A stretch of DNA of 64,000 nucleotides, from NCBI GenBank assembly GCA_017472285.1, contig JAFUQQ010000012.1:2051-66050 (forward strand), given 5' to 3'. Below are positions 4,180-55,471 of the stretch, one piece after another (the first letter of the stretch is position 1; each line of letters starts with the position of its first letter). Under the pieces are notes generated by a model. The model searched no databases. It was not told the origin of the DNA and saw only the letters and a program-made list of their open reading frames with translations. A program made the position numbers and the translations under genes. The DNA comes from Clostridia bacterium (GTDB lineage: Bacteria > Bacillota > Clostridia > Oscillospirales > CAG-272).

Positions 4180-4186
4180 GGTCTAT

Positions 4187-20965: not shown

Positions 20966-20982
20966 AAGGACGGAGATGACTG

Positions 20983-22017: not shown

Positions 22018-22042
22018 AAATGGTGAAGAAGGAGCTGTTTTG

Positions 22043-23015: not shown

Positions 23016-23061
23016 TTAATCATTGTCGGATTATTCCCTATTTTACTTAAACATGGAACAA

Positions 23062-23204: not shown

Positions 23205-23239
23205 TTATTCGTATTATCTCAACGTAGGAGTGGAACATA

Positions 23240-25042: not shown

Positions 25043-25054
25043 TCGGAGGCCTGT

Positions 25055-26821: not shown

Positions 26822-27008
26822 ATTTGCACAAAATCTCAAATTATCGTGAGTTCTATACAGCATAAAAAACTTATATTATGTGAATTTTCGGAGTTTTAGT
26901 GGTCGAAGTATACATATAAATAATAAAATCAATAGCTGATTAAGGTAAAAAAGGCGATAAAATGGGATAGCGTGTTATATATTTACTGAATTTAACCTAA
27001 AAGAGAAG

Positions 27009-28442
27009 GTGAACAATTTGAAAAGATATGTTTTGCGATCATTTATTAAAATAGATAAAATCGAAAATAAGATGTATTTGGTTTCTAGAATAATGCCAAA
27101 CATTAAGTATGCCTATTTAGATCCATTGGTCGCTCTTGTCGTTTATAAACTTAACACTGGTAATAGCGTCGAGGAAGTTGCAAGTGAGGTGGCTGACTTC
27201 CTACAATGTGAATACACGATTGCTGAAGAAAAAGTGAACAATATTGTATTTATTCTTAGAGATTATTTGATAGAAACAAACAGCACGAAGAATATACGCA
27301 GATCAATCGATTTAAAGAATATACTGGTGGAAGGAAGCCGAGATTTTGAACCTATTGTCCCGCGAAGTTCTGTTCCTAAAAAAATTAGTTTTAATTTAAC
27401 AGAATATTGTCCAAGACAATGCATTTACTGCTTTAATGGCGCAAAACTTTCTGCCAATAATGCCATTCCAAACACTTTTCTGTCACCTGCACGGTTTAAA
27501 GAAGTTATAGACGAGGTTTTGGCACTTGGTATACCTTTTATTGAAATTGGGGGCGGAGATCCATTAATTAATCCTGATATATTGCAGTATATTCAGATAT
27601 TATCTGCTGTTGACGATTCAAAAAAGGGGATTTCTACTAAATCATATGTTAGCCCAGAGTTTGCTATTCAGCTTCGTGAACATGGATTAAATGAAATTCA
27701 AGTTAGTATAGACAGTCTTAATCCCCAAACAGCAGATATGCTGATGGGTGTAAAAAATTCTTACAGGGAAGTAACCGAAACTATAAACAACCTGAGAAAA
27801 GCAGGAATTAATGTAACAATAAAAGCAGTAATTACTTCGTTTAACATTTACGATATACCATCTCTATTTGAGAATTTCATTGATTCGGGAATCAAAAAAA
27901 TTCTATTTAATTATTATAACTTCTCATCTAATCGTCACTCTAAAAAACTTTTCCCCACAAATAGTCAGCTAACATGGTTAAGCGCAAATATGGAAAAATT
28001 GCTCAAAAAGGCTGAGCAAGAACAGGTATATACTGATTATAGAGATATAACTTACGAGGATATTCGATCTACTGATTGTTCCATGATGCTGAAAAGCTAT
28101 ACTAGAAATCAATGTGGTGGTATGAAAGGTGAATTTACTGTTCGCTATGATGGAAAAGTCATCTTTTGTCCAACAATTTGTTATTGTGATGACTTTGTCG
28201 TTGGAGATCTTAAGATTGATGGAATATATGATATTTGGACTTCGTCATTGTTAGATGAATGGGATCGACCGGAAAGCAAACGGGAAAAATACCATGGCAC
28301 GGAGTGCTATGATTGTAAACTGTATGATAAGTGTCATTTCAGAAGATGTTATATTCGGCAATACGATGCCAATAATCGATTTTTTTCAAAAGATCCATTG
28401 TGTCCTTATGGTGATCCTAATTATTCACAATTCATAGAATAA
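27009..28442 (+). CDS. radical SAM/SPASM peptide maturase 2
   Basis: GTG start after AAGAGAAGG. CPRQCIYC. C-terminal Cys cluster (QCGGM..FCPTICYC...CYDCKLYDKCHFRRC). Overall architecture parallels 19562-20965. Confidence 0.8.
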   Translation: MNNLKRYVLRSFIKIDKIENKMYLVSRIMPNIKYAYLDPLVALVVYKLNTGNSVEEVASEVADFLQCEYTIAEEKVNNIVFILRDYLIETNSTKNIRRSIDLKNILVEGSRDFEPIVPRSSVPKKISFNLTEYCPRQCIYCFNGAKLSANNAIPNTFLSPARFKEVIDEVLALGIPFIEIGGGDPLINPDILQYIQILSAVDDSKKGISTKSYVSPEFAIQLREHGLNEIQVSIDSLNPQTADMLMGVKNSYREVTETINNLRKAGINVTIKAVITSFNIYDIPSLFENFIDSGIKKILFNYYNFSSNRHSKKLFPTNSQLTWLSANMEKLLKKAEQEQVYTDYRDITYEDIRSTDCSMMLKSYTRNQCGGMKGEFTVRYDGKVIFCPTICYCDDFVVGDLKIDGIYDIWTSSLLDEWDRPESKREKYHGTECYDCKLYDKCHFRRCYIRQYDANNRFFSKDPLCPYGDPNYSQFIE

Positions 28443-28775
28443 TATCGCGAATCAATAATTGATGTCTTTGCATATGTTCGCCACGCACGTCAACAATGGT
28501 GTAATATCCAGTTATGTATGGACATAAATAGTGGGCAGAACGAATAAAAAATCATAGTAGTTTTAAAACCGCAGGGAGTGGTATCATAACTGTGACTATG
28601 CCTCGCGCTACTGATGAGTAGGAATAATTATGGCGTTACTGTGCTCAATCACACTTTAGTGTGGATTACCCGAACACATAAACAAAGCAGTTTTCTCAAT
28701 GTGCGCAATATACATTGTCCTAATAAAGTTATTTTATGTCTATTTATTCTGATATGTGCCGCAAAGGAGTTTTTT

Positions 28776-29042
28776 ATGAAAGAAATAATAAAGAAAAGAG
28801 TATTAGAAATCGTCAATTCTAATCTGGAATATGAAAAAATCACAATGGAACAATGCGAAGATGATTTGCTTGAATATGGAATGGATTCCATTCGTTTTAT
28901 TCAGACGATTGTTTCCCTTGAAGAAGAATTTGAGTGTGAAGTACCGGATTCAAAATTGCTTTTAGTTGAAATGAATACTATAAATAAAATATATGAAGTG
29001 CTGATTTCTATTGATTCAAATGAATCTAATATTGTTTATTAA
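28776..29042 (+). CDS. acyl carrier protein
   Basis: AAAGGAG RBS then ATG 28776. 88 aa with the phosphopantetheine-site motif LEYGMDSIRFIQ. The track ORF 28614 is a 5' over-extension. Confidence 0.75.
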   Translation: MKEIIKKRVLEIVNSNLEYEKITMEQCEDDLLEYGMDSIRFIQTIVSLEEEFECEVPDSKLLLVEMNTINKIYEVLISIDSNESNIVY

Positions 29043-36399: not shown

Positions 36400-36745
36400 T
36401 TCGTGAGGAACGAGCAAGCCGATCTCATAACTGCGCCATGACCTTTCTATAAAGCGAGCGAGACACATTTATGAGTGAATCTAAGTTGCTCTTGGAGCGA
36501 GGCTATAACAGACGATAGGTGATAATGATACTTCCGTAGCAGAAATGCGCGGCTGGCGGAGTACCCGGCAGAGGTGAGATTCCTATGAGTTCGGTTCGCA
36601 ATCGAGCGTTCGATGATTTCCCATATAGATCATAGATCTACACATCGGGGATGTCGAGGACAAATACGATGTGTAAGGCACTTACGGTCAAATGGCGATT
36701 CACCTTTGACATAGAATTGTCTTCGTAAGTGCTGATACATAGTTT
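36400..36745 (+). other. hairpin-rich, GC-elevated non-coding leader upstream of the mazF-like gene (structured RNA or decayed gene)
   Basis: Stops in all + frames. Nested stems: CACATCG..CGATGTG, GGCACTTACG..CGTAAGTGCT enclosing GTCAAA..TTTGAC. One minus-strand frame reads ~120 codons with 3 stops, so a decayed gene cannot be excluded. Confidence 0.3.
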
Positions 36746-36769
36746 GAAAAAATAATAAGGAGTCTTGAA

Positions 36770-37207
36770 ATGAAAAGAAAATATAAACGCGGAGAAATCT
36801 ATTATGCAGATTTAAGTCCGGTGGTTGGTTCAGAACAGGGTGGTTATCGTACGGTTTTAGTTCTTCAGAATAATAAAGGGAACAAGTACAGTTCCACAGT
36901 AATCGTGGCTTCTATTACAAGCAGACTTGGCAAGCATAAACTTCCCACCCATGTAGATATGAGTTCTATCAGATTGAAAAAACATTCTATCGCGCTTTTG
37001 GAGCAACTCCGAACGATTGATAAGTCGAGAATGAAAGAATACATAGGGAAGGCAACAAAAGCAGAGATGACAGAAATCGAAACGGCGTTGCTGATCAGTG
37101 TTGGTATACAGCAGGAATTTTTAATGAATCCGAAGCTGGTAATGTTTATGCTTAGTGTGATAAGGAAATACTTTGATCGAGTGCTTGACATTTATCCTAT
37201 AATATGA
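36770..37207 (+). CDS. MazF/PemK-family endoribonuclease toxin (with ~30-codon 3' extension)
   Basis: AAGGAG RBS. KRGEIYYADLSPVVGSEQGGYRTVLVLQNNKGNKYSSTVIVASITS...LLEQLRTIDKSRM. The ORF tail runs through the next promoter. Confidence 0.8.
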   Translation: MKRKYKRGEIYYADLSPVVGSEQGGYRTVLVLQNNKGNKYSSTVIVASITSRLGKHKLPTHVDMSSIRLKKHSIALLEQLRTIDKSRMKEYIGKATKAEMTEIETALLISVGIQQEFLMNPKLVMFMLSVIRKYFDRVLDIYPII

Positions 37208-37505: not shown

Positions 37506-38165
37506 ATGCAAACAAAGAAAGATAAACGTGAATATATCCGTAGTCAAATTATTGCGGCATCACATATTTATCGAGATCATCTTGCCGGTAAAGTGTTCCT
37601 GTATGTGCATGGAGAATCCTATTTTGAAGTGGTTTTCAAAACGGATCGCTTTATGCATTTGACAGGTGTAAGCTCTCCATTGAATGCAAGTTCATTTTAC
37701 GAAAAAGCAAAAGCTTCTAAGCTTACAACCGGACAGATTGTGTTTGACAGTAAGCATCCGTATGAAGGAGCAAAGAAAAAATTACCGTGTCTTTTGAAAT
37801 TGCCATCACTGACAGAAGAACTTGTTTGTGTGGTAAAGGATATGCAAACGCTTACACTTACATATAAGATCGGTGTTACGAATCTTGATTTTACGATTGG
37901 ACTGACTGAAAATATAGATTTTGAGGGCAATAAGATCAATGATTGGTTTTTGCCGAGAACATTGCGTGTGAGAGACAAAGCGATTGAAAATAGTCCGTCT
38001 GCGGAATTTGTTGATTTTATTTTCTGTAAAGATGCTTCGCATGAAAAATATTCGACACTAACTTTTTCGGATGAATTAAAAGATATTCCTTCTGTGATTG
38101 AGAAGTTTCTTTCATCAGAATTGCTTGAATCGTTGAAAAAAGATAAAAGTGAAATTACAACTTAA
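37506..38165 (+). CDS. 219-aa protein, tentatively PBECR4-like (Barnase/EndoU/colicin-RelE-like nuclease domain family)
   Basis: YRDHLAGKVFLYVHGESYFEVVFKTDRFMHLTGV...LTLTYKIGVTNLDFTIGL resembles my recollection of PBECR4 proteins. Unverified. Confidence 0.55.
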   Translation: MQTKKDKREYIRSQIIAASHIYRDHLAGKVFLYVHGESYFEVVFKTDRFMHLTGVSSPLNASSFYEKAKASKLTTGQIVFDSKHPYEGAKKKLPCLLKLPSLTEELVCVVKDMQTLTLTYKIGVTNLDFTIGLTENIDFEGNKINDWFLPRTLRVRDKAIENSPSAEFVDFIFCKDASHEKYSTLTFSDELKDIPSVIEKFLSSELLESLKKDKSEITT

Positions 38166-38522: not shown

Positions 38523-39096
38523 GTGAGAAAGGTGAAAGCAAAAAACAAAACAGTACAAATTATTAAACCGACCATCGGAACGGAAGCGGAACGCATGATA
38601 AGGGTTGCTGCCTATTGCCGATTCAGTACGGACTCGGAGGATCAAGCCAACGCCTTTCTCGCCCAAGTACGCTACTATTCCGATTTCATTCAATCACAGG
38701 AAAACATGCTTCTTGTGGATATTTACGCCGATGAGGGTATCACGGGAACTTGTATGAACAAGCGAAAGGATTTCAAACGGCTGATTTACGATTGTAGTAT
38801 TGGACGTATTGATCGAATCTATGTTAAAAGCGTATCGAGATTTTCAAGAAATTCTTTAGAGTGCATTGAAACAATTCGAAAGTTAAAAGAATGCTGATGC
38901 GATTATGGAGTGTGCTTCCGAAAAATATGCGTGTTGCGAAATATTATGTCATGCCGAGCTTACCGAAGAGATACTTGCAGAGTATATAAAAACAACGGTT
39001 CTTGATGAGAAACTCATCGAAAGAACCATTGATAAAATCTATGTGGATGCTGATGGTAGGATTACTTTGAAACTTATCAGCGGTGCTATAATATAA
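38523..39096 (+). pseudogene. large serine recombinase with internal deletion
   Basis: Resolvase N-terminal domain (RVAAYCRFSTDSEDQ...SVSRFSRNSLECIETIRKLKEC*) stops at 38897. A C-terminal tail (..LIERTIDKIYVDADGRITLKLISGAII*) follows in 38905-39096. The ~400-aa middle is missing. Confidence 0.65.
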
Positions 39097-39114: not shown

Positions 39115-40740
39115 ATGAATACAGATATGCCAAGAACAATCACAAAAATAGAAGCTAATCCGCTTTTAGCAAAAGGAAAAGATGATTTCCGAATCAAAAG
39201 GGTAGCGGCATATTGCCGAGTATCCACAGATGATGAAGATCAGCTTAATAGCTACGAAGCGCAGATTGCTTATTACACCGAGGTGATTGCCAAAAATCCG
39301 AATTGGCAATTTGCAGGAATCTATGCAGACGAGGGAATCACAGGAACAGCAACGAAAAAGAGAAAAGATTTTCTTCGTCTGATGCGCGATTGTGAACATG
39401 GCAAAGTGGACTATATTCTCACAAAGTCGATTTCCCGTTTTGCAAGAAATACCGTCGATAGTTTAACTTGGGTTCGCAAACTTCGTGTGAAAGGTATCGG
39501 TGTCTATTTTGAAGAACAGGCGATTGATTCTTTGAAAGCGGAAAACGAAATGCTGATCGGTTTATTTAGCGTAATTGCACAGTCAGAGAGCGAGAATATC
39601 GGTGCTAATGTCAAATGGGGTATCCGTCAGAGCATGAAAAGCGGAACCTATTGTACGAATTTTTCTTGTTACGGTTATCGACGCGGTGATGATGGGATTC
39701 CTATTATCGTTGAGGATGAAGCAACAGTAATCAGAGAAATTTATAAGCAATTTCTTGATGGAAAAAGCACACTTGCGATCAGTCGTTATTTGACAGAACA
39801 ACATATACTAACCTTTTCGGGCAAGACCGAATGGAATAAAAGTAGAGTCAGAGATCTTTTATCCAATGAAAAATATGTAGGAGACGTTCTTCTGCAAAAA
39901 ACATATGTTGTTGATCCCATATCAAAACAGACAAAGACAAATAACGGCGAGCTTGCGAAATATTTGATTGCCAATAATCATCCTGCCATTATTGATCGTG
40001 ATACATACAACGCTGTTCAAATGGAGCTTGCCGCAAGAAACAGTAAATCTAAAAGATCAGAAAGAGGGATTACTGAGAAAGGGAAGTACAGCTCCAAGTA
40101 TGCGCTTACCGATGTTTTAATCTGTGGGTGCTGCGGTAGTTATTATCGCAGAACAGGGAAAACGGTCAAGGGAAAAGTGCAGCACGTTTGGCGTTGTATC
40201 GGACGAATCGAACATCGTTGCAAAGATGCCGTAGGCATCGAAGAAACAAAATTACATACGGCAATCTGCAAATGTCTTTCGCAGATGATGAATCACCGAG
40301 AGGATGTTATCAATCTTTGCCGTGCCAATTTACAGTATGCCTTAATAGGTGATACACAGGTTCTTGATGTGTTTGCAATTGAAAATCAAATTGAGCATAA
40401 CCAAGACCTCATTGATGACCTTATGGAAAAAGCAGAGAAGACAACGGGGGATCCGGAGCGTTATGAAAGGGAAATTATAAAACTGTATGAACAAATCGCA
40501 GTTTTAAGAGATCAGCTAAAACTTGCTAAGACACAAGCAGAACAAAACGTGAGTGTCAATGCTGAAATCGAGCGATTTATCAAAGCAGTACAAGAGTACG
40601 ATGACGCTGATTTTACGGAGTACAACGATGTCATGATTCGCCGTCTTGTCGAATGTATTCGAGTGATTCCGGATAGGAGTATTGAGGTGGTGTTAAAGAA
40701 CGGTGAAAAAGAAAGCGTAGAAATGAAATTTTTAGATTGA
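39115..40740 (+). CDS. large serine recombinase (intact)
   Basis: RVAAYCRVSTDDEDQLNSYEAQ, SRFARNTVD, recombinase and zinc-ribbon region (CGCCGSYY...WRC), coiled-coil C-terminus. 541 aa. Confidence 0.9.
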   Translation: MNTDMPRTITKIEANPLLAKGKDDFRIKRVAAYCRVSTDDEDQLNSYEAQIAYYTEVIAKNPNWQFAGIYADEGITGTATKKRKDFLRLMRDCEHGKVDYILTKSISRFARNTVDSLTWVRKLRVKGIGVYFEEQAIDSLKAENEMLIGLFSVIAQSESENIGANVKWGIRQSMKSGTYCTNFSCYGYRRGDDGIPIIVEDEATVIREIYKQFLDGKSTLAISRYLTEQHILTFSGKTEWNKSRVRDLLSNEKYVGDVLLQKTYVVDPISKQTKTNNGELAKYLIANNHPAIIDRDTYNAVQMELAARNSKSKRSERGITEKGKYSSKYALTDVLICGCCGSYYRRTGKTVKGKVQHVWRCIGRIEHRCKDAVGIEETKLHTAICKCLSQMMNHREDVINLCRANLQYALIGDTQVLDVFAIENQIEHNQDLIDDLMEKAEKTTGDPERYEREIIKLYEQIAVLRDQLKLAKTQAEQNVSVNAEIERFIKAVQEYDDADFTEYNDVMIRRLVECIRVIPDRSIEVVLKNGEKESVEMKFLD

Positions 40741-42284: not shown

Positions 42285-42905
42285 GTGGGAAAGTAGTAAT
42301 CAAAGGCGTGACTAAATGTACATATGTTGTATTTAGTGTTCAGATGGGCGATTATAAAGATGATCTTAACATTGGGATAAAAGCGCATAGATTCCTGAAA
42401 TCCTAGTTTTTCGTGATGCATAAATTCAAAAATTAAGAGTGTTTATGTAGATGGATTGAATGGATTTAAGGAAGCAATCAATGTCGTTTTCTAAATCGCA
42501 GTTTCAATGTTGTGTTATCAGATATTTGCAAAAAACATATAAGCGACAAAGATATTAAGGCTGTTATGGCAGATCTAAAAAATTTATTTGGCAATCGACG
42601 AATAAGAAATGTTCTAAATATAATTTAAAGAAAATTGGGGCAAAAACGTATCCCAGCTACAGGAGAAGCTGGGATGAGAATAATGAATATTCTTTTTGCG
42701 TTTTTTGTATATCTTATCGAAGTTTGCAAAATACATACTATATTAGATTAATATTATCAAAGGTTTGAATCGAAGTTCCGAAAAATCAGAGAGAACAAGA
42801 CTTCTTATACAAACCATGATTCACTTAGAAAAATCTTGTATCTTGCATTACAAATATTGTCTAATTGATCTCTTTTACTTAAAACTTTTTTGCAGTGTCT
42901 TAGAA
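42285..42905 (+). pseudogene. IS256-family transposase remnant (many stops and frameshifts)
   Basis: Fragments YVVFSVQMGDYKDDLNIGI, VYVDGLNGFKEAINVVF, ENWGKNVS and NRSSEKIRENKTSYTNHDSLRKILYLALQI follow the order of IS256 transposase motifs (..DGLKGF.EAI..VFP.., ..F...W.kkYP.., ..N.iE..n+.l++.tk....FpnddsllKllyLa..). Confidence 0.6.
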
Positions 42906-43398: not shown

Positions 43399-43849
43399 TA
43401 ATAGCAGATATCTTCCTCGTTATTATGAAACATATCGTTCACTTCCTTTTATTTGATATTATAATTATATATTAAATTTTATAAAAAATCAATTCATTTA
43501 TTTAACAAAAAATATATTTATAATTATATATTTTTAACAAACAGCGAGAAAAACAAGCTAAACAACACCTCAAAATGAACCAACGATGTTCAAGTTGAGG
43601 TGTTTTCTTTATGTGAAAAAGTCTTGCGGTGCAAGGCTTTTTCTGCTTTTGAGGCACTGATGATTTTATCTGTGGTGCGTGTCAATTTTACTAGAGTTAG
43701 ATGTCGATTTTGTTAAATGTAATCTATTCGAACCTGAGATGTACAATTTGATAATAGCTATTTTTATATGAGATTTCTATATTTAGTTGATTTACAAATA
43801 AATCGTATTATGATATAATTGATTTAATTATATTGAAAGGAGAAAAACT

Positions 43850-44626
43850 ATGATACTTACAGAATTTGATAGTAATCAAAGAGCAATTATCAATCCGGAT
43901 ACGTTTCACCCGATTTTAAAAGAAATGCCTAAAACTTGTGTTTCATTTTTTTCTAAATCCATCATGAAAGAAATTGTTGAGCATTATCCTGTCAAAAAAA
44001 TTGCGTGTATATCGAATGCAACGGCTGATTTTCCCATATATAAAATCAATATTAAAGGTGTGGATATCGCCATTTATCAATCTGCTGTTGGTGCGCCTGC
44101 CTGTGTTTGCAATTATGAGGAATTGATTGCGATGGGCGTGAAGAATTTTTTGCTTGTGGGTTGTTGCGGTTGTTTGGATGAGCGTTTAGAAGAATATTCG
44201 ATCATCATACCGACTGCTGCCATTAGAGATGAGGGTACGAGTTATCATTATGCGCCTGCGAGTGATGAAACGATTATCAATCAAAAGGTTGTCGATATTT
44301 TGGAAAATACACTTTCCTCACTTTCCTTGCATTACAGTAAAGGTAAAACTTGGACGACAGATGCTCTTTTCAGAGAAACAAAGGAAAAGATGGAAAGACG
44401 GAAAGCGCAAGGTGCAATCACCGTGGATATGGAATGTTCTGCAATGAACGTGGTATCCGATTTCAGAGGGGTTAATTTCGGTCAAATTTTCTATGCCGCC
44501 GATAATTTGGGTGGGGAAGAATATGATCCCAGAAATTTGATACAAGGCGTGGAAAGCTTTGATAGTAAGAAAAAAATTATACCGATTGCTTTTGAATGTG
44601 CATTAGCGATGGATAAAGAATTATAA
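43850..44626 (+). CDS. nucleoside phosphorylase (PNP/UDP family)
   Basis: AGGAGAAAAA RBS. GVDIAIYQSAVGAPACV...LLVGCCGCL...IRDEGTSYHY...TVDMECSA is the typical family pattern. Confidence 0.7.
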   Translation: MILTEFDSNQRAIINPDTFHPILKEMPKTCVSFFSKSIMKEIVEHYPVKKIACISNATADFPIYKINIKGVDIAIYQSAVGAPACVCNYEELIAMGVKNFLLVGCCGCLDERLEEYSIIIPTAAIRDEGTSYHYAPASDETIINQKVVDILENTLSSLSLHYSKGKTWTTDALFRETKEKMERRKAQGAITVDMECSAMNVVSDFRGVNFGQIFYAADNLGGEEYDPRNLIQGVESFDSKKKIIPIAFECALAMDKEL

Positions 44627-44690
44627 TTACATAGGCAAAAATCAAGCCGACTTTATAACACCGAAATGGTGAAATAAGGTCGGCTTTAAA
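44627..44690. repeat. cassette-array module copy 0 (TACATAGGC box + hairpin only)
   Basis: ATTACATAGGCAAAAATC then hairpin AAGCCGACTTTAT..ATAAGGTCGGCTT (44644-44686). Confidence 0.7.
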
Positions 44691-44727
44691 TCTTGATATG
44701 TATTTGAGTTATGAGAGGGTTGTGTTA

Positions 44728-45273
44728 TTAAATAATGGAAGATTTTGTTTTCCACATATAGGCTTGTTTTAATAATTTCTCAATTAACTCTTGTTTGCCT
44801 GCTGTGTAATATCCTCTATTATCAGCAAATTCTAATGCTAATTTTTTCTTTAATGCATCATATTCCTTTGCATATTCAGGAAAAGCATTCAGATAATCTC
44901 TAAAATTTATGTAATTATTCCAAGCAACACTGTTCCATTCAACAACATGAATATGATGAGTTCGAAATTCTCTTTCAAAATTTCCAATCACAAACAATAA
45001 TTGTTCTTTCACATCCTCTTTTCTGAACATAATGCCGTTTTCCGCTAATACGCCTATATATGGTTTGATATTATTCAAATTATCGACTGCAACAGCGATA
45101 TCAATAATGGGTTTAGCATGTATATTTTGAATAGCAGTACTACCAATATGCTGAATATCAATAGCGACATCGTTTAATATTTCCTTTAACAGATGGATTG
45201 TTCCTGCTGCTTTAGTTTCCCATATCATTTGGTGAGGAAGCAATTCCACAGTGCCCCTTTTCAGTCCAATCAT
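44728..45273 (-). CDS. GrpB-family protein
   Basis: IQHIGSTAI..AKPIIDIAVAV...THHIHVV...W.NYINFRDYL...EYAKEYDALKKKLA is the typical GrpB/UPF0157 pattern. Confidence 0.8.
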   Translation of the reverse strand: MIGLKRGTVELLPHQMIWETKAAGTIHLLKEILNDVAIDIQHIGSTAIQNIHAKPIIDIAVAVDNLNNIKPYIGVLAENGIMFRKEDVKEQLLFVIGNFEREFRTHHIHVVEWNSVAWNNYINFRDYLNAFPEYAKEYDALKKKLALEFADNRGYYTAGKQELIEKLLKQAYMWKTKSSII

Positions 45274-45341
45274 TGTAATACCTCCAATGCCTATAAGTTA
45301 AATGCTTACTAATTCCAATAAATTGAAATATAGCTAATTCA

Positions 45342-46097
45342 TTATTTTTTTAATTCCCAGTATAAGTACAATGGAATCTTTTTTAGCCATGCCAATGCGA
45401 CAGATATTGATGCCTGTTCGTCGCTTGCCTGAGGTTCATTCAAATCGACAATCGTTAATCCTACTTTGAGAAATGTTTTCACATAATCTTCTAACGTCCT
45501 ATGTCTCCAAATTACAGGAGTTGTTCCTTTCCAAAGAGGAGCTTCCCATTCTTTCGGCTCGAAATAATTCATAACAACCACTTGTCTTTCGATACCGACA
45601 CCCTGCCGTCCTATGCCAGTTTCATGATTTCCATCAAAACAAGGGTGCAAAACACTTGCAAACAATCGTCCATTTGGTTTTAATACACGAACCACTTCAC
45701 GTAAAGTCCCTTCAAGATCCTCACAATCCATTAGCATCATGGAGCAAAGTACAATATCAAACTGATGAGATTCGATATCAAATAGATCATTGCTGTTTCG
45801 GATAAAGTGCTCAATATGAAGATTTTCTTCTTTTGCGAAAGCAGTCGAAAATTCAATAGCTTTCTTTGAACAGTCAATAGAGACAAGTTGTGCGCCTCTT
45901 TTGGCAAGCTCTCTCGAATAGCCACCTTCACCACAGCCCAAATCTAAAATCTTTTTACCCTTCACATTACCCATGAATTTGAGCATATTGGGCATGATAA
46001 AACACATTCTGCTTTCGCCTGTTTGAGCCAGTTCAACCCATTCATCACCCATTGCATTCCATGCAATCGTGGAACTATCATGTTTCATCTCTTTCAA
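45342..46097 (-). CDS. class I SAM-dependent methyltransferase
   Basis: Motif I ILDLGCGEGGYSRELAKRG. Start TTG 46097 or ATG 46088 downstream of GAAGGAGG. The track start 46121 lies inside the RBS. Confidence 0.8.
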   Translation of the reverse strand: MKEMKHDSSTIAWNAMGDEWVELAQTGESRMCFIMPNMLKFMGNVKGKKILDLGCGEGGYSRELAKRGAQLVSIDCSKKAIEFSTAFAKEENLHIEHFIRNSNDLFDIESHQFDIVLCSMMLMDCEDLEGTLREVVRVLKPNGRLFASVLHPCFDGNHETGIGRQGVGIERQVVVMNYFEPKEWEAPLWKGTTPVIWRHRTLEDYVKTFLKVGLTIVDLNEPQASDEQASISVALAWLKKIPLYLYWELKK

Positions 46098-46121
46098 CGC
46101 TACTACCTCCTTCAATTTCAA

Positions 46122-46250
46122 GTTTATTTATGAGAAGATATTATAGCATGGTATTTTAGAATAGTCAATAGAAAAGCAATAAATTACATAGGCAAAAATA
46201 TAAGCCGACTTTATCGCACCGAGGTGGTGAAATAAGGTCGGCTTTTTGCG
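46122..46250. repeat. cassette-array module copy 1 (leader + promoter + TACATAGGC box + hairpin)
   Basis: Minus-strand TTGACT (46168-46163), 17 nt, TATAAT (46145-40). Box AATTACATAGGC. Hairpin 46202-46244 plus T-run. Confidence 0.75.
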
Positions 46251-46307
46251 TATTTCTTTTATTGGTTGCATATTAGGGTATATCTTGAAAATTGGAATTG
46301 GTCAAGA

Positions 46308-46913
46308 TTATATTTCAAAGTCTGGAATAACACCATTTATTACACATCTAATAATATTCATTGCCTCGCCTTTTGCCCGTTCAACACCCACTGCTGTATT
46401 CATCCAATTATCCCGTCTCGTATTGTTATCATTTGCTGGACAAGGAATGATAGCAATATGTGTTGGGAACAAATATCGTGCGATAGCCAAACTGCGTCTC
46501 ATATGATAGGCTGTTGTAACCAACAACACTCTGCGAACTCTATTCAGCCAGAAAGTTCGTTGTAATTCTACCAATGCAAAGAGGATATTCTCGACTGTGT
46601 TCTGTGATGAATTCTCTAAAATAACATTTTCTTCAGATATACCTAATTCTAAAACAGCTTTATACATATGCTCGGCTTCGCTACATTTTCCAACAGAAAA
46701 ATCTCGTAATGCACCACCGCATAACATGATTTTTCTGGCTCTTCCTGCCTTATAAGCATCAACCGCAACAGGCACTCTATACTTTGTAGCCTTTACGCTT
46801 CCTAATACAATAATGCAATCGGCACTTTCACCTGTATCTTCTAAATCTTGAAATAATAACCTGTCTACTATTTCAGGCGTCAGGTCTTCCTCTTTTATTT
46901 TTGATACTAACAT
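46308..46913 (-). CDS. YdcF/DUF218-family protein
   Basis: ADCIIVLGSVKATKYRVPVAVDAYKAGRARKIMLCGG...LLVTTAYHMRRS. Confidence 0.75.
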   Translation of the reverse strand: MLVSKIKEEDLTPEIVDRLLFQDLEDTGESADCIIVLGSVKATKYRVPVAVDAYKAGRARKIMLCGGALRDFSVGKCSEAEHMYKAVLELGISEENVILENSSQNTVENILFALVELQRTFWLNRVRRVLLVTTAYHMRRSLAIARYLFPTHIAIIPCPANDNNTRRDNWMNTAVGVERAKGEAMNIIRCVINGVIPDFEI

Positions 46914-47061
46914 TTTTCTTCCTCACAAATTCAAGTTTATGTATTAGTTGACATTATATCATGAAGTATAGAATTAGTAAATAGAAAAGCTGAAAAAATA
47001 CATAGGCGCAAATTAAGCCGACTTTATCGCACCGATGTGGTGAAATATGGTCGGCTTTTTC
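46914..47061. repeat. cassette-array module copy 2
   Basis: Minus-strand TTTACT (46981-46976), 17 nt, TATAAT (46958-53). The leader GTCAACTAATACATAAACTTGAATTTG is nearly identical to copy 4. Hairpin 47015-47057. Confidence 0.75.
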
Positions 47062-47074
47062 ATTATTATCGTTT

Positions 47075-47695
47075 TTATTTAAATCTACGAACAACTATTT
47101 TATTTGATGCATGTAAATGCTTTGGCACACCGGGATGCTCATCTTCAAAGATATATGACTTAAATTGTAAGACTTCCCAATCTTTATACAAATCAATGAT
47201 CTCTTCATCTTTTGCTAAGCCAATTGCAAATGGGGCAATATCTTCTGATGCCGGTACGCTATCGGTAAATATCTGCATTATGTGTATTCCACCAATATTT
47301 GTGTGTAATTTTGCGTTATTGAGAAAATTTTTCCAATCATCTTTACTTAGAAAATGTAAAGTACCAAAGCAGATAATCATGTCATAATTCTTTTCAAATT
47401 GATATGTGGTCATGTCGGCAACATAAGCATTAAGTTGTGTACCAAGTAGTTGACATCTATGTTTTACCTTGGCTATTGCGTTTTCTGATAAGTCAAATGC
47501 ATCAGTATTGCAATACCCTTGTTGTGCTAAGTATATAGCATTTTGACCTTCTCCACAACCAGCTTCTAAAATTTTTGATTGCTTACTTAGTAAGTTTTCA
47601 AATTCTTTGACCGTTGGATTCGGTTTAACTGAAAAAGTGATAATATCTTTTTCTTGATATGTTTTTTCCCAAAATGGAATTATCTCTTTGCCCAT
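47075..47695 (-). CDS. class I SAM-dependent methyltransferase (TehB-like)
   Basis: ILEAGCGEGQNAIYLAQQG. ATG 47695 follows GGGGTGA, and the track start 47704 overlaps the RBS. Confidence 0.8.
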   Translation of the reverse strand: MGKEIIPFWEKTYQEKDIITFSVKPNPTVKEFENLLSKQSKILEAGCGEGQNAIYLAQQGYCNTDAFDLSENAIAKVKHRCQLLGTQLNAYVADMTTYQFEKNYDMIICFGTLHFLSKDDWKNFLNNAKLHTNIGGIHIMQIFTDSVPASEDIAPFAIGLAKDEEIIDLYKDWEVLQFKSYIFEDEHPGVPKHLHASNKIVVRRFK

Positions 47696-47704
47696 GCAAA
47701 TCAC

Positions 47705-47868
47705 CCCAATGAATTTAGATTTATTTTAATAAAACTTTATATCACAAAATATAAAGAAAGTCAATAGTAAGTTTCTTTTCATAGTGAAAATAATTGTGAA
47801 AAATTACATAGGCACTAATCAAGCCGACTTTATCGCACCGAAGTGGTGAAATAAGGTCGGCTTTTTTG
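47705..47868. repeat. cassette-array module copy 3
   Basis: Minus-strand TTGACT (47764-47759), 17 nt, TATAAA (47741-36). Box AATTACATAGGC. Hairpin 47821-47863 plus T-run. Confidence 0.75.
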
Positions 47869-47926
47869 CTTATTCTAGTTACTGATTGTGTCTTATAATA
47901 TATCTGATAAATTGGAATTTGTCAAT

Positions 47927-48451
47927 CTATTTCATGGATTCTATACTGTCGATTCCGTTATACCAATTCAATAAATCAGCATATGTGCCTCTAAAATGAT
48001 AACTGATTCCATTTTTGTTTTCGCCTACTATTGTTAGTCCTAATTTGCCGAGAATACCGACTGATTTGATGTTCCTCTTGTCTGCGTATGCTTCAACAAC
48101 ACAGACCCCATCTCTCATGTTATCTAAAACGAATTTGTAAATTTTTTCAAAAATATTGTATTTACCTTGATAAGACTTTCTTATCTGTATCTCTTCCATA
48201 AAAAACACATCATTTTGCACGGAGTATTTAAAAAAGCCTGCGATTTCATTTATTTCTTTTTGAACAATAATGATAATGTGTCGATTTTCATTTTTCAGTT
48301 CTTCTTTATTCGCATCAAACCAACACGAAAAAGCTTCTTCACGGCTATTTCCGATAGGTGCAATCCAACTCATATTATCATATAAAACTGAAAATAACGC
48401 CTCGGCATATTGTTCAAACTCATCCTGTCTTAAAAAGTTAATATCAAACAT
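47927..48451 (-). CDS. GNAT-family N-acetyltransferase
   Basis: 174 aa. FMEEIQIRKSYQGKYNIFEKIYKFVLDNM...VEAYADKRNIKSVGILGKLGL is a GNAT-like core. Confidence 0.7.
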   Translation of the reverse strand: MFDINFLRQDEFEQYAEALFSVLYDNMSWIAPIGNSREEAFSCWFDANKEELKNENRHIIIIVQKEINEIAGFFKYSVQNDVFFMEEIQIRKSYQGKYNIFEKIYKFVLDNMRDGVCVVEAYADKRNIKSVGILGKLGLTIVGENKNGISYHFRGTYADLLNWYNGIDSIESMK

Positions 48452-48560
48452 GTTATTCCTCCGTCAAATTCAAGTTTATGTATTAGTTAACATTATAGCG
48501 CGATATTCTCAAATAGTCAATAGAAATCCATAAAAATTGCATAGGCGCAAATCAAAAGCC
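48452..48560. repeat. cassette-array module copy 4 (leader + promoter + TGCATAGGC box; hairpin replaced)
   Basis: Minus-strand TTGACT (48520-48515), 17 nt, TATAAT (48497-92). Leader GTTAACTAATACATAAACTTGAATTTG. Box ATTGCATAGGCGCAAATC. Confidence 0.7.
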
Positions 48561-48762
48561 CAAGTGTGCTTTTCCGACCAAATGGAGATTTTTTCTCCGT
48601 TTGATATGTTTACACGAAATTGTCGTTATGTTATAATACTTTGCAGATAGTAATATTGAAAAAAATAAATAAAAAATTTTTTCAATATTTAACCGAAAGG
48701 GGTTTTGTTCCACTATATAAGTGAAATCACCGGTGATGATGAAAAGCAAAGGAGGTGTTAAA

Positions 48763-50328
48763 TTGGATAGACAAGAACTTGATGCAAAGGTTGAAGATAT
48801 GGCAAAAACTCTTTTATCTTATTGTTCTGCCCGAACATCCAATCATTTTGAAGCCGAAGATTTGGCACAGGATATCATTTTGGAGATATATAAATCTGCC
48901 GATAACATCCGTAATATTGATGCGGTTTATGGTTTTATGTGGGCAGTCGCAGGAAATGTCTATAAACAGTGGTGTAAAAACAAAGCTAAGGATAAAGAAT
49001 GTGAACTGACAGATCATCTGCCGGATGTGGCTGAATTATTGGATGCAGACGATTCTTCACTCCAACTGCTCCGACGGGAATTGACATTACTTTCAGAGAA
49101 ATATCGAAAAGCTGTTGTTTTATACTACATTGAAAATAAATCTTGTTCAGAAATATCCGATTGCCTTTCGATCAGTGAAAACATGGTAAAATATTTGCTT
49201 TTCAAATCCCGACAAATTTTGAAAGAAGGTATGAGTATGGAACGAAACTATGGTAAGCAGAGTTATCACCCAAAAGAGCTTTCTCTTTTATTCTGGGGGA
49301 ATGGTGCGAATCGCTATTATCATTTGTGTGATAGTAGAATATCACAAAACATTTTGTTTGCTTGTTACAATGACAAACTGAGTGCAGAGCAAATCAGCTT
49401 GGAAATCGGCGTATCTCTCCCATACATGGAGGATAAGTTGGCAGAACTTTGTGAGTATGAATTTTTAAAAAAAGATGGTAACCGATATTACACAAATATC
49501 GTGATTTTCACAAAAGATTTTGCAAGCGAAGTGAATGTTAAAACGGCTGACTTACGAAAAAATATTGCGGATATGCTAATAGCAGCCATTTCCGAACAGG
49601 AGAAAGCCGTTCGCAATATAGGATTTTACGGTGCTGAGATGAATCATAATGCTTTTTCTTGGCAAATGGTCAGCTTTATTTTGTATCGTGCAGTGGTGGA
49701 AAATCTCCAAAATAAAATTGAGATCGTTTACCCTAAAGATAAATTCGGAACCGAGTGTTTTATCTGGGGAAGCGAGAATGATGCTCAAAACTCGTGGAGA
49801 TCTGAATTTGGATTTGGTATCTCCAATGTTGTCAACAGCAACGGAGATTACGTGCAGTTTATGGATTTTCCGATCAACGGAGAAATGGTGCATCATTACT
49901 GTTTTAACCGTCAGAACGTTACAAATGTATTTCTGGATATTGCCAAAGGTCACACAGCGCATTTCAGTGATAACGATAAGGCATTGGCGGCTGATATGGT
50001 TCGTAAGGGATATGTCATTTCAAACGATAAAGGGCTTTTTGTCAATGCGCCTGTATTTACGGAAGCTCAGTATCAAGCTTTAAAGAATATTTTTGCTGAA
50101 ACAGTTGAGAAAATTGCCGATGAAGCCGAAACATTGATGGAAACGGTCACAAAAATCCTGAAAAATCACATGCCTGGACATTTAAAGAAGTTTGCAAAAG
50201 ATATGGCATATTTTCGTCTGTTTGAAGATGCAATATCTGCGCCGGTTGCAATTTTGTATGATCGCAAATATTTGTTGCCGTATGATAAAAAGGATATTCT
50301 TCCTACGACTTATGTTATTTTGAAATGA
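48763..50328 (+). CDS. sigma-70-family (ECF-like) protein with ~340-aa C-terminal extension
   Basis: AAAGGAGG RBS then TTG 48763. Region 2-like AEDLAQDIILEIYKS...WAVAGNVYKQW, region 4 KYRKAVVLYYIENKSCSEISDCLSISENMVKYLLFKSRQIL. Confidence 0.7.
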   Translation: MDRQELDAKVEDMAKTLLSYCSARTSNHFEAEDLAQDIILEIYKSADNIRNIDAVYGFMWAVAGNVYKQWCKNKAKDKECELTDHLPDVAELLDADDSSLQLLRRELTLLSEKYRKAVVLYYIENKSCSEISDCLSISENMVKYLLFKSRQILKEGMSMERNYGKQSYHPKELSLLFWGNGANRYYHLCDSRISQNILFACYNDKLSAEQISLEIGVSLPYMEDKLAELCEYEFLKKDGNRYYTNIVIFTKDFASEVNVKTADLRKNIADMLIAAISEQEKAVRNIGFYGAEMNHNAFSWQMVSFILYRAVVENLQNKIEIVYPKDKFGTECFIWGSENDAQNSWRSEFGFGISNVVNSNGDYVQFMDFPINGEMVHHYCFNRQNVTNVFLDIAKGHTAHFSDNDKALAADMVRKGYVISNDKGLFVNAPVFTEAQYQALKNIFAETVEKIADEAETLMETVTKILKNHMPGHLKKFAKDMAYFRLFEDAISAPVAILYDRKYLLPYDKKDILPTTYVILK

Positions 50329-55220: not shown

Positions 55221-55294
55221 GCGGGTGTAGTTCAATGGTAGAACTCCAGCCTTCCAAGCTGGTCGCGTGGGTTCGATTCCCATCATCCGCTCCA
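55221..55294 (+). tRNA. tRNA-Gly (anticodon UCC)
   Basis: Acceptor GCGGGTG/CATCCGC, TAGTTCAATGGTA D-arm, anticodon loop CTTCCAA, GGTTCGATTCC T-arm, encoded CCA. Confidence 0.9.
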
Positions 55295-55302
55295 TAATAT
55301 TT

Positions 55303-55379
55303 GTGCCTTTAGCTCAGCTGGATAGAGCAACTGCCTTCTAAGCAGTAGGTCGGGGGTTCGAGTCCCTCAAGGCACGCCA
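55303..55379 (+). tRNA. tRNA-Arg (anticodon UCU)
   Basis: Acceptor GTGCCTT/AAGGCAC, TAGCTCAGCTGGATAGAGC D-arm, anticodon loop CTTCTAA, GGTTCGAGTCC T-arm, encoded CCA. Confidence 0.9.
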
Positions 55380-55393
55380 TTCCTTCAATATAT

Positions 55394-55471
55394 GGTGGAT
55401 ATAGCTCAGCTGGTTAGAGCGCCAGGTTGTGGCCCTGGAGGTCGTCGGTTCGAACCCGATTATCCACCCCA
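55394..55471 (+). tRNA. tRNA-His (anticodon GUG, with G-1)
   Basis: Extra 5' G pairing with C73, anticodon loop TTGTGGC, GGTTCGAACCC T-arm, encoded CCA. Confidence 0.9.

Follow-up and report, generated by a model that had tools for sequence, protein, structure and literature searches.

An array of small-enzyme genes, each set in a near-identical terminator-promoter frame, occupies 43.75 to 48.6 kb of the 64-kb stretch of DNA analyzed here (the window), from an uncultured gut Clostridia bacterium. With moderate confidence, we read this region as a series of self-contained expression units, each with one gene except for a unit of two, that belongs to a dispersed mobile family.

Genes of the array

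Pfam searches confirmed four of the five minus-strand genes named in the preliminary description (GrpB, a class I SAM-MTase, DUF218, and a TehB-like MTase). The fifth has only a weak GNAT match (E 5e-4), under the Pfam cutoff. According to Pfam, the repeats separate ORFs that have no relation to one another, which supports the earlier view that unrelated ORFs sit in one conserved expression frame. The PNP gene has the opposite orientation to the other genes and shares the same hairpin framework. The genes and units are as follows.

43755-44643, plus strand: PNP_UDP_1 unit, running to the shared hairpin; CDS 43850-44626 (Pfam)
44728-46121, minus strand: two-gene unit, SAM-MTase then GrpB (Pfam and sequence)
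44728-45273, minus strand: GrpB (Pfam)
45342-46097, or to 46121 from a TTG start, minus strand: class I SAM-MTase (Pfam)
46308-46913, minus strand: DUF218/YdcF cassette ORF (Pfam)
47075-47704, minus strand: TehB-like SAM-MTase cassette ORF (Pfam)
47927-48451, minus strand: GNAT-like cassette ORF, 174 aa (weak Pfam Acetyltransf_3 match)

The predicted terminator-promoter module

Read on the gene strand, the module consists of a hairpin, a U-rich tract, a GCCTATGTAAT box, a promoter with -35 and -10 elements 17 nt apart, and a short leader. Three families of direct repeats, D1 (hairpin and box), D2 (promoter and leader, 91 nt, 64 to 79% identical), and D3 (3' flank, 63 nt, 73%), match the module coordinates reported earlier. 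The following elements were located.

43791-43819, plus strand: PNP unit promoter, TTTACA-17-TATAAT (promoter scan)
44644-44689, both strands: hairpin copy 1, -24 to -25 kcal/mol on both strands
46168-46140, minus strand: MTase promoter, TTGACT-17-TATAAT with a TG extension (promoter scan)
46193-46183, minus strand: box GCCTATGTAAT of the MTase module (sequence search)
46202-46247, both strands: hairpin copy 2 (pattern match and folding)
46981-46953, minus strand: DUF218 promoter, TTTACT-17-TATAAT with a TG extension (promoter scan)
47008-46998, minus strand: box GCCTATGTATT of the DUF218 module (repeat analysis)
47015-47060, both strands: hairpin copy 3 (pattern match and folding)
47764-47736, minus strand: TehB-like promoter, TTGACT-17-TATAAA (read from the sequence, not in the promoter scan)
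47813-47803, minus strand: box GCCTATGTAAT of the TehB-like module (sequence search)
47821-47866, both strands: hairpin copy 4, -25 kcal/mol on the gene strand and -28.6 on the plus strand
48520-48492, minus strand: GNAT promoter, TTGACT-17-TATAAT (promoter scan)
48462-48600, minus strand: the array's first module, with L site, promoter, box variant GCCTATGCAAT, and hairpin remnant

Three of the four modules previously described as full proved to be so; the fourth (48452-48560) has the box, promoter, and leader, with only a decayed remnant of the hairpin (about 48555-48600). The 17-nt spacer attributed to all four promoters was recovered in three by the promoter scan and in the fourth from the sequence. 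The near-identical leader noted for two copies was also found, AACTAATACATAAACTTGAATTTG being identical at 46926-46949 and 48465-48488. As estimated from the position of the -10 element, the leader covers about 25 to 35 nt before the ribosome-binding site. The PNP stop codon adjoins the box, TAA being followed directly by TTACATAGGC (44627-44636).

The 46-nt hairpin gave four matches in 64 kb at three or fewer mismatches, against 0.03 expected by chance, and the copies differ mainly in the loop, as the preliminary description had stated. All four lie within 44.6 to 47.9 kb and share one orientation, and fuzzy searches revealed no further copies elsewhere in the 64-kb window. Folding gave -21 to -29 kcal/mol on either strand (z -4.5 to -7). 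The hairpin is flanked by a T-run on the plus strand, in agreement with the earlier account of an antisense T-tract, and by a U-rich tract, TTrATTTTTG, on the gene strand (TTGATTTTTG, TTATATTTTTG, TTAATTTGCG, and TTGATTAGTG, 3' of the hairpin), which indicates that it is not purely antisense. The interrupted hairpins were not among the terminators listed by a consensus terminator scan.

The module is best read as a predicted two-way intrinsic terminator joined to a predicted housekeeping-type promoter, in most cases with a TG extension, insulating single-gene units. Hairpin copy 1 is predicted to be a two-way terminator common to the convergent PNP (plus) and GrpB (minus) genes, and copy 2 to terminate the DUF218 unit and insulate the MTase promoter. 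With a terminator and a promoter in each unit, each small enzyme would be transcribed alone, from its own promoter to the next hairpin, and read-through would be blocked both ways.

Units in other genomes

Nine or more further contigs or MAGs from uncultured Clostridia also carry the hairpin-plus-box core (five loci of four MAGs, two metagenome contigs, and L034 to L036); the counts for MAGs and metagenome contigs come from strict-pattern scans of public collections, which few copies matched, and are lower bounds. From genome to genome, the hairpin sequence hardly varies. Locus L006 holds a complete module-ORF-hairpin unit with a different ORF, of which L001 carries a truncated copy.

The DUF218 unit was found in three unrelated contexts: in the window, in L034 beside an ABC transporter, and in L035 between BNR_2 and ABC genes. 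Comparison of the three loci gave identities of 95 to 98% for the CDS, 88 to 97% for the R site and spacer, 81 to 91% for the box, promoter, and L site, and 45 to 87% for the flanking hairpins, with no detectable similarity beyond the unit. Given the identity of the CDS, the genomes with this unit may be close relatives, and part of the pattern may therefore be rearrangement within one species. The PNP unit of the window is 92% identical over 936 nt to that of L007, which has the module on both sides, and the flanks (about 30%) are unrelated. The situations that the preliminary description had set against its own reading, a module found only here with a strictly conserved gene order or no polymorphism at the cassette boundaries, do not hold: the module is present in other genomes, and the neighbors of a cassette vary among relatives, the DUF218 and PNP units standing in three and two contexts, respectively.

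The arrangement of the window recurs in four long contigs with the same gene order and identical proteins and is thus not an assembly artifact. Most homologue contigs are shorter than 5 kb. Contig L009 is exactly the SAM-MTase and GrpB unit, both ends breaking inside hairpin modules, and L006 and L034 also break inside modules. Such breaks and short contigs are compatible with repeats that have variable neighbors.

Palindromic sites around the ORFs

An imperfect palindrome of about 20 bp, GACAAATT-kG-AATTTGTC, stands in inverted copies on the two sides of the DUF218 and GNAT ORFs; it reads ATAAAyTTGAATTTG at the L site and TTGACmAATTCCAATTT at the R site. The similarity between 3' flanks that had been reported is real (D3), but the shared 3' flank and the leader end are inverted copies of one such site, a relation that went unnoticed, as did this palindromic layer as a whole. 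The sites in the array are listed here.

46110-46129, minus strand: L site of the MTase cassette, AAATAAACTTGAAATTGAAG, directly 5' of the ribosome-binding site (PWM scan, 16.2 bits)
46285-46304, minus strand: R site of the DUF218 cassette, gene strand TTGACCAATTCCAATTTTCAAG, beginning 4 nt past the stop codon (PWM scan)
46923-46942, minus strand: L site of the DUF218 cassette, ACATAAACTTGAATTTGTGA (PWM scan)
about 47716-47731, minus strand: degenerate L-like motif of the TehB-like ORF, ATAAATCTAAATTCAT (PWM, 9.4 bits)
47905-47924, minus strand: R site of the GNAT cassette, gene strand TTGACAAATTCCAATTTATCAG, the best palindrome, TGAyAAATT-CC-AATTTrTCA (PWM, 25.8 bits)
48481-48462, minus strand: L site of the GNAT cassette (PWM scan)

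The PWM gave 18 matches against 4.4 expected in 182 kb, a count that is largely circular, as 15 of these sites built the model. In an independent test, a PWM from the DUF218 flanks alone ranked the flanks of the GNAT, MTase, and L003 ORFs at the top of 344 ORFs, the MTase L site being fifth among the 344 upstream regions. Weaker or partial L and R motifs lie beside the MTase, TehB-like, and GrpB ORFs and beside two ORFs at other loci. For the TehB-like, GrpB, and PNP genes, the motif is weak or missing, and the TehB-like ORF has no recognizable R site. In the 68-nt SAM-MTase/GrpB junction (45274-45341), whose sequence showed neither hairpin nor promoter, two degenerate motifs, one R-like and one L-like, lie end to end (TTTCAATTTATTGGAATTAG).

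The L and R sites remain distinguishable (CTTG versus TTGG); all cassettes show the same mismatches, and none has a compensatory change. They stay with the DUF218 and GNAT ORFs in distant genomes where the module is missing and other promoters and terminators are present. DUF218 homologues number more than 1300, and those 80 to 99% identical occupy at least six genomic contexts; at loci in four unrelated contexts, shared homology begins at L and stops at R. GNAT homologues of 72 to 87% identity, with those of L023 and L025 carrying the same sites, likewise keep L and R in unrelated contexts. No target-site duplication was seen at L or R sites when the sequences of the cassette loci were compared. 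We regard the palindromes as the better candidate boundaries of the cassettes.

Alternative explanations

REP/BIME elements are short, dispersed, intergenic imperfect palindromes at gene 3' ends that can terminate transcription or stabilize mRNA, and by this general description the hairpin, which is short, conserved, imperfect, and dispersed at gene 3' ends, resembles them. Only the 62-nt core of box and hairpin might then be mobile or amplified, as in a REP/BIME- or MITE-like repeat, having settled as a terminator or mRNA stabilizer between resident genes that are not cassettes. The core does stand alone 3' of unrelated genes (ylqC in L001, RHS-like fragments in L002 and L004, a 54-aa ORF in L007 and L035, and PNP), and hairpin variants tend to follow the host locus, not the cassette. 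We nevertheless consider this unlikely: a box and a full promoter adjoin the hairpin, which moves with genes as a unit, the whole promoter-ORF-spacer interior being 81 to 98% identical at unrelated loci; unrelated ORFs have identical leaders and similar 3' flanks; and L and R sites accompany ORFs in genomes that have no module. Moreover, the module sequence has no REP-type GTAG motif, no RAYT gene was seen for the array, and the only transposase-type domain reported in the window is an IS66 fragment (114-656). The palindromes could also be operators for a dimeric regulator, or paired 5' and 3' UTR elements of the mRNA, and not recombination or transposition sites. In its favor, the L site occupies a classic operator position, 3' of the -10 element and 5' of the ribosome-binding site; the site is an AT-rich palindrome of 8-2-8 architecture; L and R as RNA could pair at 11 of 13 positions, as counted by hand; and in L011 the DUF218 cassette comes after MarR and MatE genes. 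Homology between contexts ends at the sites, however, an R site has no regulatory rationale, the L and R identities are fixed, and no common regulator gene lies near the different copies, which makes this a rather improbable explanation.

Integron cassettes are usually promoterless and rely on a common Pc. Here, the likeness to integron arrays, including integrase-less attC clusters (CALIN), lies in compact cassettes of one ORF with conserved, internally mismatched imperfect hairpins between them, in a cargo of proteins of unknown function and of small enzymes, the latter typical of chromosomal integrons, and in the same cassette appearing in different contexts, with identity falling at the hairpins. 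The hairpins would then be attC sites, folded as single strands and served by an IntI-type tyrosine recombinase encoded elsewhere. We reject the integron-like organization proposed earlier because no RYYYAAC...GTTRRRY (R''/R') core pair exists in any intergenic region of the array, the scanned ORFs of the window include no tyrosine recombinase (IntI), and every cassette brings a promoter and a terminator of its own. In addition, attC sites share structure and not sequence, unlike this hairpin, and the array ORFs have separate double-stranded palindromic sites at both ends. Surveyed Firmicutes genomes include none with complete integrons (PMC4889954), and an integron-type array is highly improbable. 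Hairpin-guided single-strand transposition like that of IS200/IS605 elements and their nonautonomous derivatives would have a Y1 HUH transposase encoded elsewhere, the gene as cargo, and, for left and right ends, direct-repeat hairpins together with the box set 7 to 8 nt from the hairpin foot. It would fit the uniform hairpin orientation, the conserved motif (containing TTAC on the plus strand) whose distance to the hairpin foot is fixed, and the start of the L035 unit exactly at TACATAG. It is very unlikely, given that TTAC is variable (ATAC and TTGC occur), the other L035 boundary lies inside a hairpin, PNP is inverted within the same framework, and the domains reported for the window include neither a Y1 transposase nor a TnpB type. 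A reading without mobility, in which this lineage duplicated one promoter/terminator region locally in tandem, would agree with the clustering of all window copies within 4 kb and with the gene order and identical proteins of the four long contigs. It is already contradicted by the lack of relation among the ORFs and by the presence of the module, and of entire units, in further genomes and contexts, and we find it hardly credible.

Proposed mobility of the cassettes

In pdif modules of Acinetobacter plasmids, gene modules lie between inverted short recombinase sites with no linked dedicated recombinase, and the modules described here are similarly discrete, bounded by inverted short sites, and found in varied contexts. 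The dif site has 11-6-11 XerC/XerD arms, whereas the array sites are 8-2-8 or 10-2-10 and not dif-like. Mobile insertion cassettes (MICs) of the Bacillus cereus group and Xanthomonas (PMC6542083, PMC4337579) hold passenger genes between IS-type terminal inverted repeats and are moved in trans. Likewise, the DUF218 and GNAT ORFs, which are non-transposition genes, lie between imperfect inverted repeats of 13 to 20 bp, with no transposase inside the cassettes and copies in many contexts. They differ from MICs in that neither a target-site duplication nor a cognate IS with matching ends was found, and each site is itself palindromic. The sites also lie directly against the ribosome-binding site and the stop codon, which makes the cargo an ORF with no promoter of its own, set precisely behind one.

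No array-specific recombinase or transposase is encoded beside the array, in line with the integrase reported as missing, and no common gene of either kind lies within about 8 kb of the other cassette copies. That report had overlooked a large serine recombinase (39115-40740), 4 kb from the array at the end of a conjugative element, which is most simply that element's integrase. Neither empty sites nor circular forms nor inverted copies of the units were observed, and we infer movement from comparison only.

The comparison of loci shows that the units did not arise by local duplication and form a dispersed family in uncultured gut Clostridia, which would move at two nested levels. At one level, the hairpin-to-hairpin unit (box, promoter, leader, ORF, and 3' spacer), near-identical at unrelated loci, would move, most likely with the repeated modules as recombination substrates; a circle would be excised between direct-repeat modules and reenter at another copy of the module. 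At the other, the DUF218 or GNAT ORF with its ribosome-binding site would move between L and R sites, most likely through a trans-acting dimeric recombinase or transposase that recognizes the palindromes. Judged from sequence, the array points to a cassette-shuffling system, not an integron, that would be served by a postulated mobilizing enzyme, and movement of ORFs between L and R sites would account for how unrelated ORFs come to share one frame.

Genes and repeated module of the array

The five minus-strand genes of the preliminary description are all present at 44.7 to 48.5 kb, interleaved with hairpins and predicted promoters.

Genes, hairpins and promoters of the array (window coordinates)
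43850-44626, plus strand, nucleoside-phosphorylase-like gene PNP_UDP_1 (PNP)
44644, 46202, 47015 and 47821, hairpin copies 1 to 4, AAGCCGACTTTATcgCACCGnnnTGGTGAAATAaGGTCGGCTT on the plus strand
44728-45273, minus strand, GrpB
45342-46121, minus strand, class I SAM methyltransferase (MTase)
46308-46913, minus strand, DUF218/YdcF
47075-47704, minus strand, TehB-like methyltransferase
47927-48451, minus strand, GNAT-like ORF, weak match
46168-46140, 46981-46953 and 48520-48492, minus strand, promoters TTGACT or TTTACT-17 nt-TATAAT, promoter scan (10-11/12 matches)
47764-47736, minus strand, promoter TTGACT-17-TATAAA, read from the sequence

The repeated hairpin was confirmed, with four matches at ≤3 mismatches versus 0.03 expected. 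A repeat finder resolved three families, namely hairpin plus box (four copies, 73-100% identical), promoter plus leader (three copies, 91 nt) and 3′ flank (two copies, 63 nt). Fuzzy searches of the 64-kb window gave no good copy elsewhere of the hairpin arms, the GCCTATGTAAT box, the leader or the 3′ flank box. The 17-nt spacer claimed for all four promoters was borne out, three being found by the scan and one by reading, and a TG extension is present in three of the four. With these −35 and −10 hexamers and this spacer, the module promoters are predicted to be of the Sigma-70/SigA type. One of the four modules described as full, the copy 5′ of the GNAT gene (48452-48600), retains the box, promoter and leader, but its hairpin has decayed.

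The RNA fold of the hairpin reaches −21 to −29 kcal/mol (z −4.5 to −7) on either strand. On the plus strand, a 13-bp lower stem closed by a G.U pair is followed by a T-run (TTTTT, or TTT at copy 1), the antisense T-tract originally described. The gene strand, however, is also U-rich directly after each hairpin; there, an A.C mismatch stands in place of the G.U pair of the lower stem, and the tract that follows is interrupted (TTGATTTTTG, TTATATTTTTG, TTAATTTGCG or TTGATTAGTG). Immediately after the U-rich tract lies the 11-nt box; an AT-rich spacer of about 14 nt separates the box from the promoter, and a short leader links the promoter to the ribosome-binding site. This anatomy is that of a predicted two-way Rho-independent (intrinsic) terminator; the simple terminator scan used lists no hairpins with interrupted stems. 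Copy 1, between the convergent PNP (plus) and GrpB (minus) genes, is predicted to serve as terminator for both. As a combination of terminator and promoter, the module is likely to act as an insulator that would make each gene its own transcription unit, with the MTase-GrpB pair predicted to share one. Rfam 15 gave no match in the array region at gathering thresholds, and at E ≤ 1 the sole match was one spurious microRNA inside a coding sequence. Because the hairpin stems are almost invariant across the aligned copies, their covariation gives no information.

Occurrence of the module in other loci

When one genome per species was scanned for the exact pattern, four MAGs, labelled Eubacteriales, Clostridia or Oscillospiraceae, proved to carry the hairpin at five loci in almost unchanged form. 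A metagenome scan added two further contigs, and more module copies were found in loci fetched through cassette homologues (loci and contigs from related uncultured Clostridia are numbered L001 to L036). At least nine other contigs or MAGs carry the 62-nt core (hairpin and box), and the 13.9-kb locus L035 has three or four copies of it; on this sequence evidence the module is not local. The array arrangement is repeated in four long contigs and is therefore not an assembly artifact; the window itself lies inside a 99-kb ENA contig.

Module copies in other loci
L006, complete unit: hairpin, box, promoter, leader, a different ORF, hairpin
L001, truncated copy of the L006 unit, directly after the ffh-rpsP-ylqC genes
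L003, R box (see below), hairpin, box and half promoter after an unannotated 107-aa ORF, adjoining a tRNA gene
L005, hairpin after an HD-domain gene that is itself 3′ of a GrpB gene
L007 and L035, box and hairpin directly 3′ of the stop codon of a conserved 54-aa ORF, as at PNP (TAA followed by TTACATAGGC)

The GrpB gene of L005 aligns with that of the window over the coding region only. A MazG-like identity considered for the 107-aa ORF of L003 found no support. The 54-aa ORF (MKKYQMIRKLKLTDFEIRVAIDALAAYRRKQIENNIEHDSTNELLLRLLDLLEE) lies at 217-381 in L007 and at about 11929-12100 in L035 (minus strand) and has no Pfam match. Two loci of one MAG, L002 (613-801) and L004 (906-1093), have in common a repeat of about 190 nt in which a terminator-like hairpin and a fragment with a YD/RHS-type motif (YDANGNT) precede the conserved hairpin, here without the box. 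The array and one module had no match in phage and plasmid collections (megablast, blastn), and scans of viral contigs found neither the hairpin nor DUF218.

Whole units in different contexts

Over 936 nt, the window and L007 share 92% identity in the PNP unit, which is composed of its own promoter, gene, box and hairpin. The flanks of the unit are no more alike than unrelated sequences. In L007 the module lies on both sides of this unit, and the neighboring genes differ from those in the window. For the DUF218 unit three contexts were found. Besides its place in the window array, it adjoins a branched-chain amino-acid ABC transporter in L034, where the protein is 99% identical, and has a BNR_2 gene on one side and an ABC gene on the other in L035/L036 (protein 93%).

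Identity of the DUF218 unit between contexts, by block
Coding sequence, 95-98%
R site and 3′ spacer, 88-97%
Box, promoter and L site, 81-91%
Two bounding hairpins, 45-87%
Outside the unit, about 30% or less, the level of unrelated sequence

These block identities indicate that the interior moves as a block, with mosaic boundaries at the hairpins. The subtype of a hairpin tends to go with the host locus, the TGCGCC variant being found at both ends in L034. Three independent contigs (L006, L009 and L034) end inside modules, and most contigs with DUF218 or GNAT homologues measure less than 5 kb, as is expected of repeats with variable neighbors. The preliminary description called for a comparison of cassette presence and absence; the same cassette was found in different contexts (three for the DUF218 unit, two for the PNP unit). 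Taken from comparison, in which no intermediate was seen, both the units and the ORF cassettes are probably mobile.

Palindromic sites around the ORFs

Homologues of DUF218 at 80-93% identity also occur in wholly different neighborhoods without the hairpin module: the L011 copy follows MarR and MatE genes, the L015 copy adjoins a large serine recombinase and the L019 copy stands among core genes, from YebC to a Mur ligase. In their alignment, homology begins about 25 nt 5′ of the start codon, at TAAAyTTGAATTTG (L site), and stops about 22 nt 3′ of the stop codon, at TCTTGACCAATTCCrATTT (R site). The same motifs surround the GNAT homologues (72-87% identity) of L023 and L025. L and R are inverted copies of one site, since L (AAACTTGAATTTG) matches the reverse complement of R (AAATTGGAATTTG) at 11/13 positions and, for the GNAT cassette, L (ATAAACTTGAATTTGACG) matches the reverse complement of R, ATAAATTGGAATTTGTCA, at 14/18. 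Each is an imperfect palindrome (GACAAATT-kG-AATTTGTC) that keeps a distinct center, CTTG in L and TTGG in R. The half-site on the ORF side is conserved with the ORF, and the outer one varies more with context.

A PWM made from the L and R sites gave 18 matches versus 4.4 expected in 182 kb, the strong ones all flanking these cassettes, a count that is largely circular, as 15 of those sites went into the model. As an independent test, PWMs trained on DUF218 flanks only were scored against 344 ORFs, and they placed the following flanks at or near the top.

Scores of other flanks with the DUF218-trained PWMs
Window GNAT, L 20.1 bits and R 19.2 bits
Window MTase, 16.3 bits
L025 GNAT, 13.3 and 13.0 bits
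L003 ORF, R 10.9 bits

The TehB-like, GrpB and HD genes gave weak scores (7-9 bits), and for PNP the same scoring of 344 ORFs gave no convincing L or R site. Between the window GNAT and DUF218 genes, the frames show no difference as far as the end of L, and their similarity resumes where R begins, which implies that unrelated ORFs have been exchanged precisely between the sites. The promoter that the scan placed on an R site (TTGACA-17-TATATT) was judged incidental, as it is without conservation in other copies.

Two loci carry such sites apart from an ORF. In L025, positions 7860-7991 hold a pair of L-type sites (AGACAAACTTGAATTTGGCG and CGACAAACTTGAATTGGACG), directly oriented and 112 nt apart, upstream of a GNAT cassette; no ORF lies between them, and they may be a decayed or emptied cassette slot. 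In L034 (9780-9860), a nearly perfect stand-alone palindrome, TTGATAAATTTCAATTTATCTG, with no ORF attached, is a candidate unoccupied site 15 nt upstream of a hairpin.

Cargo and genomic setting

The cargo consists of small enzymes acting on metabolites or nucleotides: a GNAT-like protein, two SAM methyltransferases, DUF218/YdcF, GrpB and a nucleoside-phosphorylase-like protein, with an HD-domain protein in another locus. No cargo enzyme scored above the curated cut-offs of NCBIfam and PADLOC for a named function, resistance or defense. The G+C content is 32-37% in the array, 28-30% at 41-44 kb and 42-46% in the chromosome beyond 54 kb, a contrast that fits acquired DNA. A tRNA cluster (Gly-TCC, Arg-TCT, His-GTG) at 55221-55471, where G+C reaches 42-46%, may mark the distal limit of the acquired region. 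The stretch 42400-42900 (28-30% G+C) has no ORF over about 57 aa, and by eye its three reading frames recall a frameshifted transposase; the joined fragments had no match in Pfam, so that a transposase-like remnant here is unconfirmed.

The gene next to the array, at 48763-50328, encodes a 521-aa protein whose N terminus is of the ECF sigma type (regions 2 and 4) and whose C terminus is extended by about 350 aa without a family match. It has hundreds of homologues at 65-86% identity, but could not serve as an anchor for presence/absence comparison of the array, because the alignment covers no more than the gene and about 90 nt upstream of it and the neighbors differ in every genome examined.

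Upstream of the array, 1-40800 looks like an integrative conjugative element, in which the cargo at 19562-29042 looks like a modified-peptide biosynthesis cluster.

Features of the putative conjugative element (window coordinates where given)
114-656, IS66 transposase fragment
Toprim/DUF3991 gene
4091-5545, relaxase
ArdC-like gene
6703-8361, coupling protein
10658-12976, VirB4-like ATPase
Sigma factor and DUF4367 protein (sigma/anti-sigma pair)
19562-20965 and 27009-28442, radical-SAM/SPASM enzymes (cargo)
23240-26821, two ABC transporter genes (cargo)
28614-29042, PP-binding protein (cargo)
36522-37207 region, pemK RNA motif (Rfam RF02913, 74 bits), about 180 nt upstream of the PemK toxin gene
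36770-37207, PemK toxin
37506-38165, PBECR4 nuclease, after PemK
38532-38897, resolvase fragment
39115-40740, large serine recombinase, last gene of the element

The large serine recombinase is most simply the integrase of this element. It was rejected as a dedicated cassette enzyme, given that it ends the element and is only 31% identical to the recombinase beside the L015 DUF218 gene. No recombinase is common to the other cassette contexts examined.

Comparison with known systems and alternative explanations

Integrons are the standard example of cassette capture, and complete integrons were absent from all Firmicutes genomes surveyed (PMC4889954). A true attC array would have in common with the present one that the same cassette is found in different contexts (three for DUF218, two for PNP). 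In attC sites, RYYYAAC (R″) and GTTRRRY (R′) flank an imperfect palindrome of 57-141 nt; a regular expression found no such pair on either strand of 44600-48620, and neither core site is present in any module-bearing intergenic region of the array. No tyrosine-recombinase domain was found in the main window ORFs or in precomputed annotations of 34.7-55.2 kb. Whereas integron cassettes are mostly promoterless and have a common Pc, each array unit has its own −35/17/−10 promoter. The array hairpin is, moreover, conserved in sequence, beyond shape alone, which argues against membership. On these grounds, the array was rejected as an integron; of the integron-like label, only the functional analogy stands, that is, modular capture and display of single genes. 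The array is probably best placed with mobile gene-cassette arrays, as a variant.

REP/BIME elements are short imperfect palindromes dispersed over many intergenic regions of a genome; the array core was found in nine or more other contigs or MAGs, with three or four copies in the locus L035. The GTAG of REP/BIME is absent next to the hairpin in a 16-copy alignment, and no RAYT (Y1 transposase) domain is reported in the window. Hairpin-guided single-strand transposition is a further, unlikely rival. Mobility of the 62-nt core only would suit the occurrence of the core by itself after unrelated genes, but is opposed by the joint movement of the whole DUF218 interior (81-98% identity) between unrelated contexts. 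Plain local duplication agrees with the clustering of copies inside the window and disagrees with the copies in other MAGs. Terminal inverted repeats that bracket a passenger ORF (DUF218 and GNAT, in unrelated contexts) are a likeness to mobile insertion cassettes or MITEs; by eye, no direct repeat flanks L and R as a target-site duplication in the DUF218 and GNAT locus sequences, and no cognate IS with L/R-type ends was found in the loci examined. L and R might instead be operators or paired UTR elements, as the position of L between the −10 element and the ribosome-binding site would allow; against this, homology between contexts stops at the two sites.

Possible mechanism and significance

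Two processes are favored, with low confidence. In one, directly repeated modules would provide portable homology: recombination between two modules would release a circle that could re-enter at any other module, giving arrays with a module between all cassettes and mosaic boundaries at the hairpins. In the other, a trans-acting enzyme would bind the 8-2-8 palindromes as a dimer and swap promoterless ORFs; candidates are a serine-type recombinase or a transposase using the sites as terminal inverted repeats. There is a real, though minor, chance that the array is a gene-capture system of Clostridia with its own enzyme, distinct from integrons. Such a system would use a trans-acting recombinase for site-specific insertion of promoterless ORF cassettes, bounded by the palindromic site of about 20 bp, into repeated docking frames (terminator, promoter, site, terminator), where each captured gene would be expressed and insulated alone; it would be integron-like in working and built otherwise. 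Narrow full-text literature searches found no account of such a system.

The 62-nt core and the 20-bp palindrome provide search handles for the cassette pool, for empty sites and, by co-occurrence, for the enzyme. Gut Clostridia may shuffle single genes separately from integrons, each with its own predicted strong promoter and two-way terminator. If so, the array would be a natural example of insulated expression units, and small-molecule-modifying enzymes, possibly drug- or xenobiotic-modifying ones, would have a new means of spreading in the gut microbiome.
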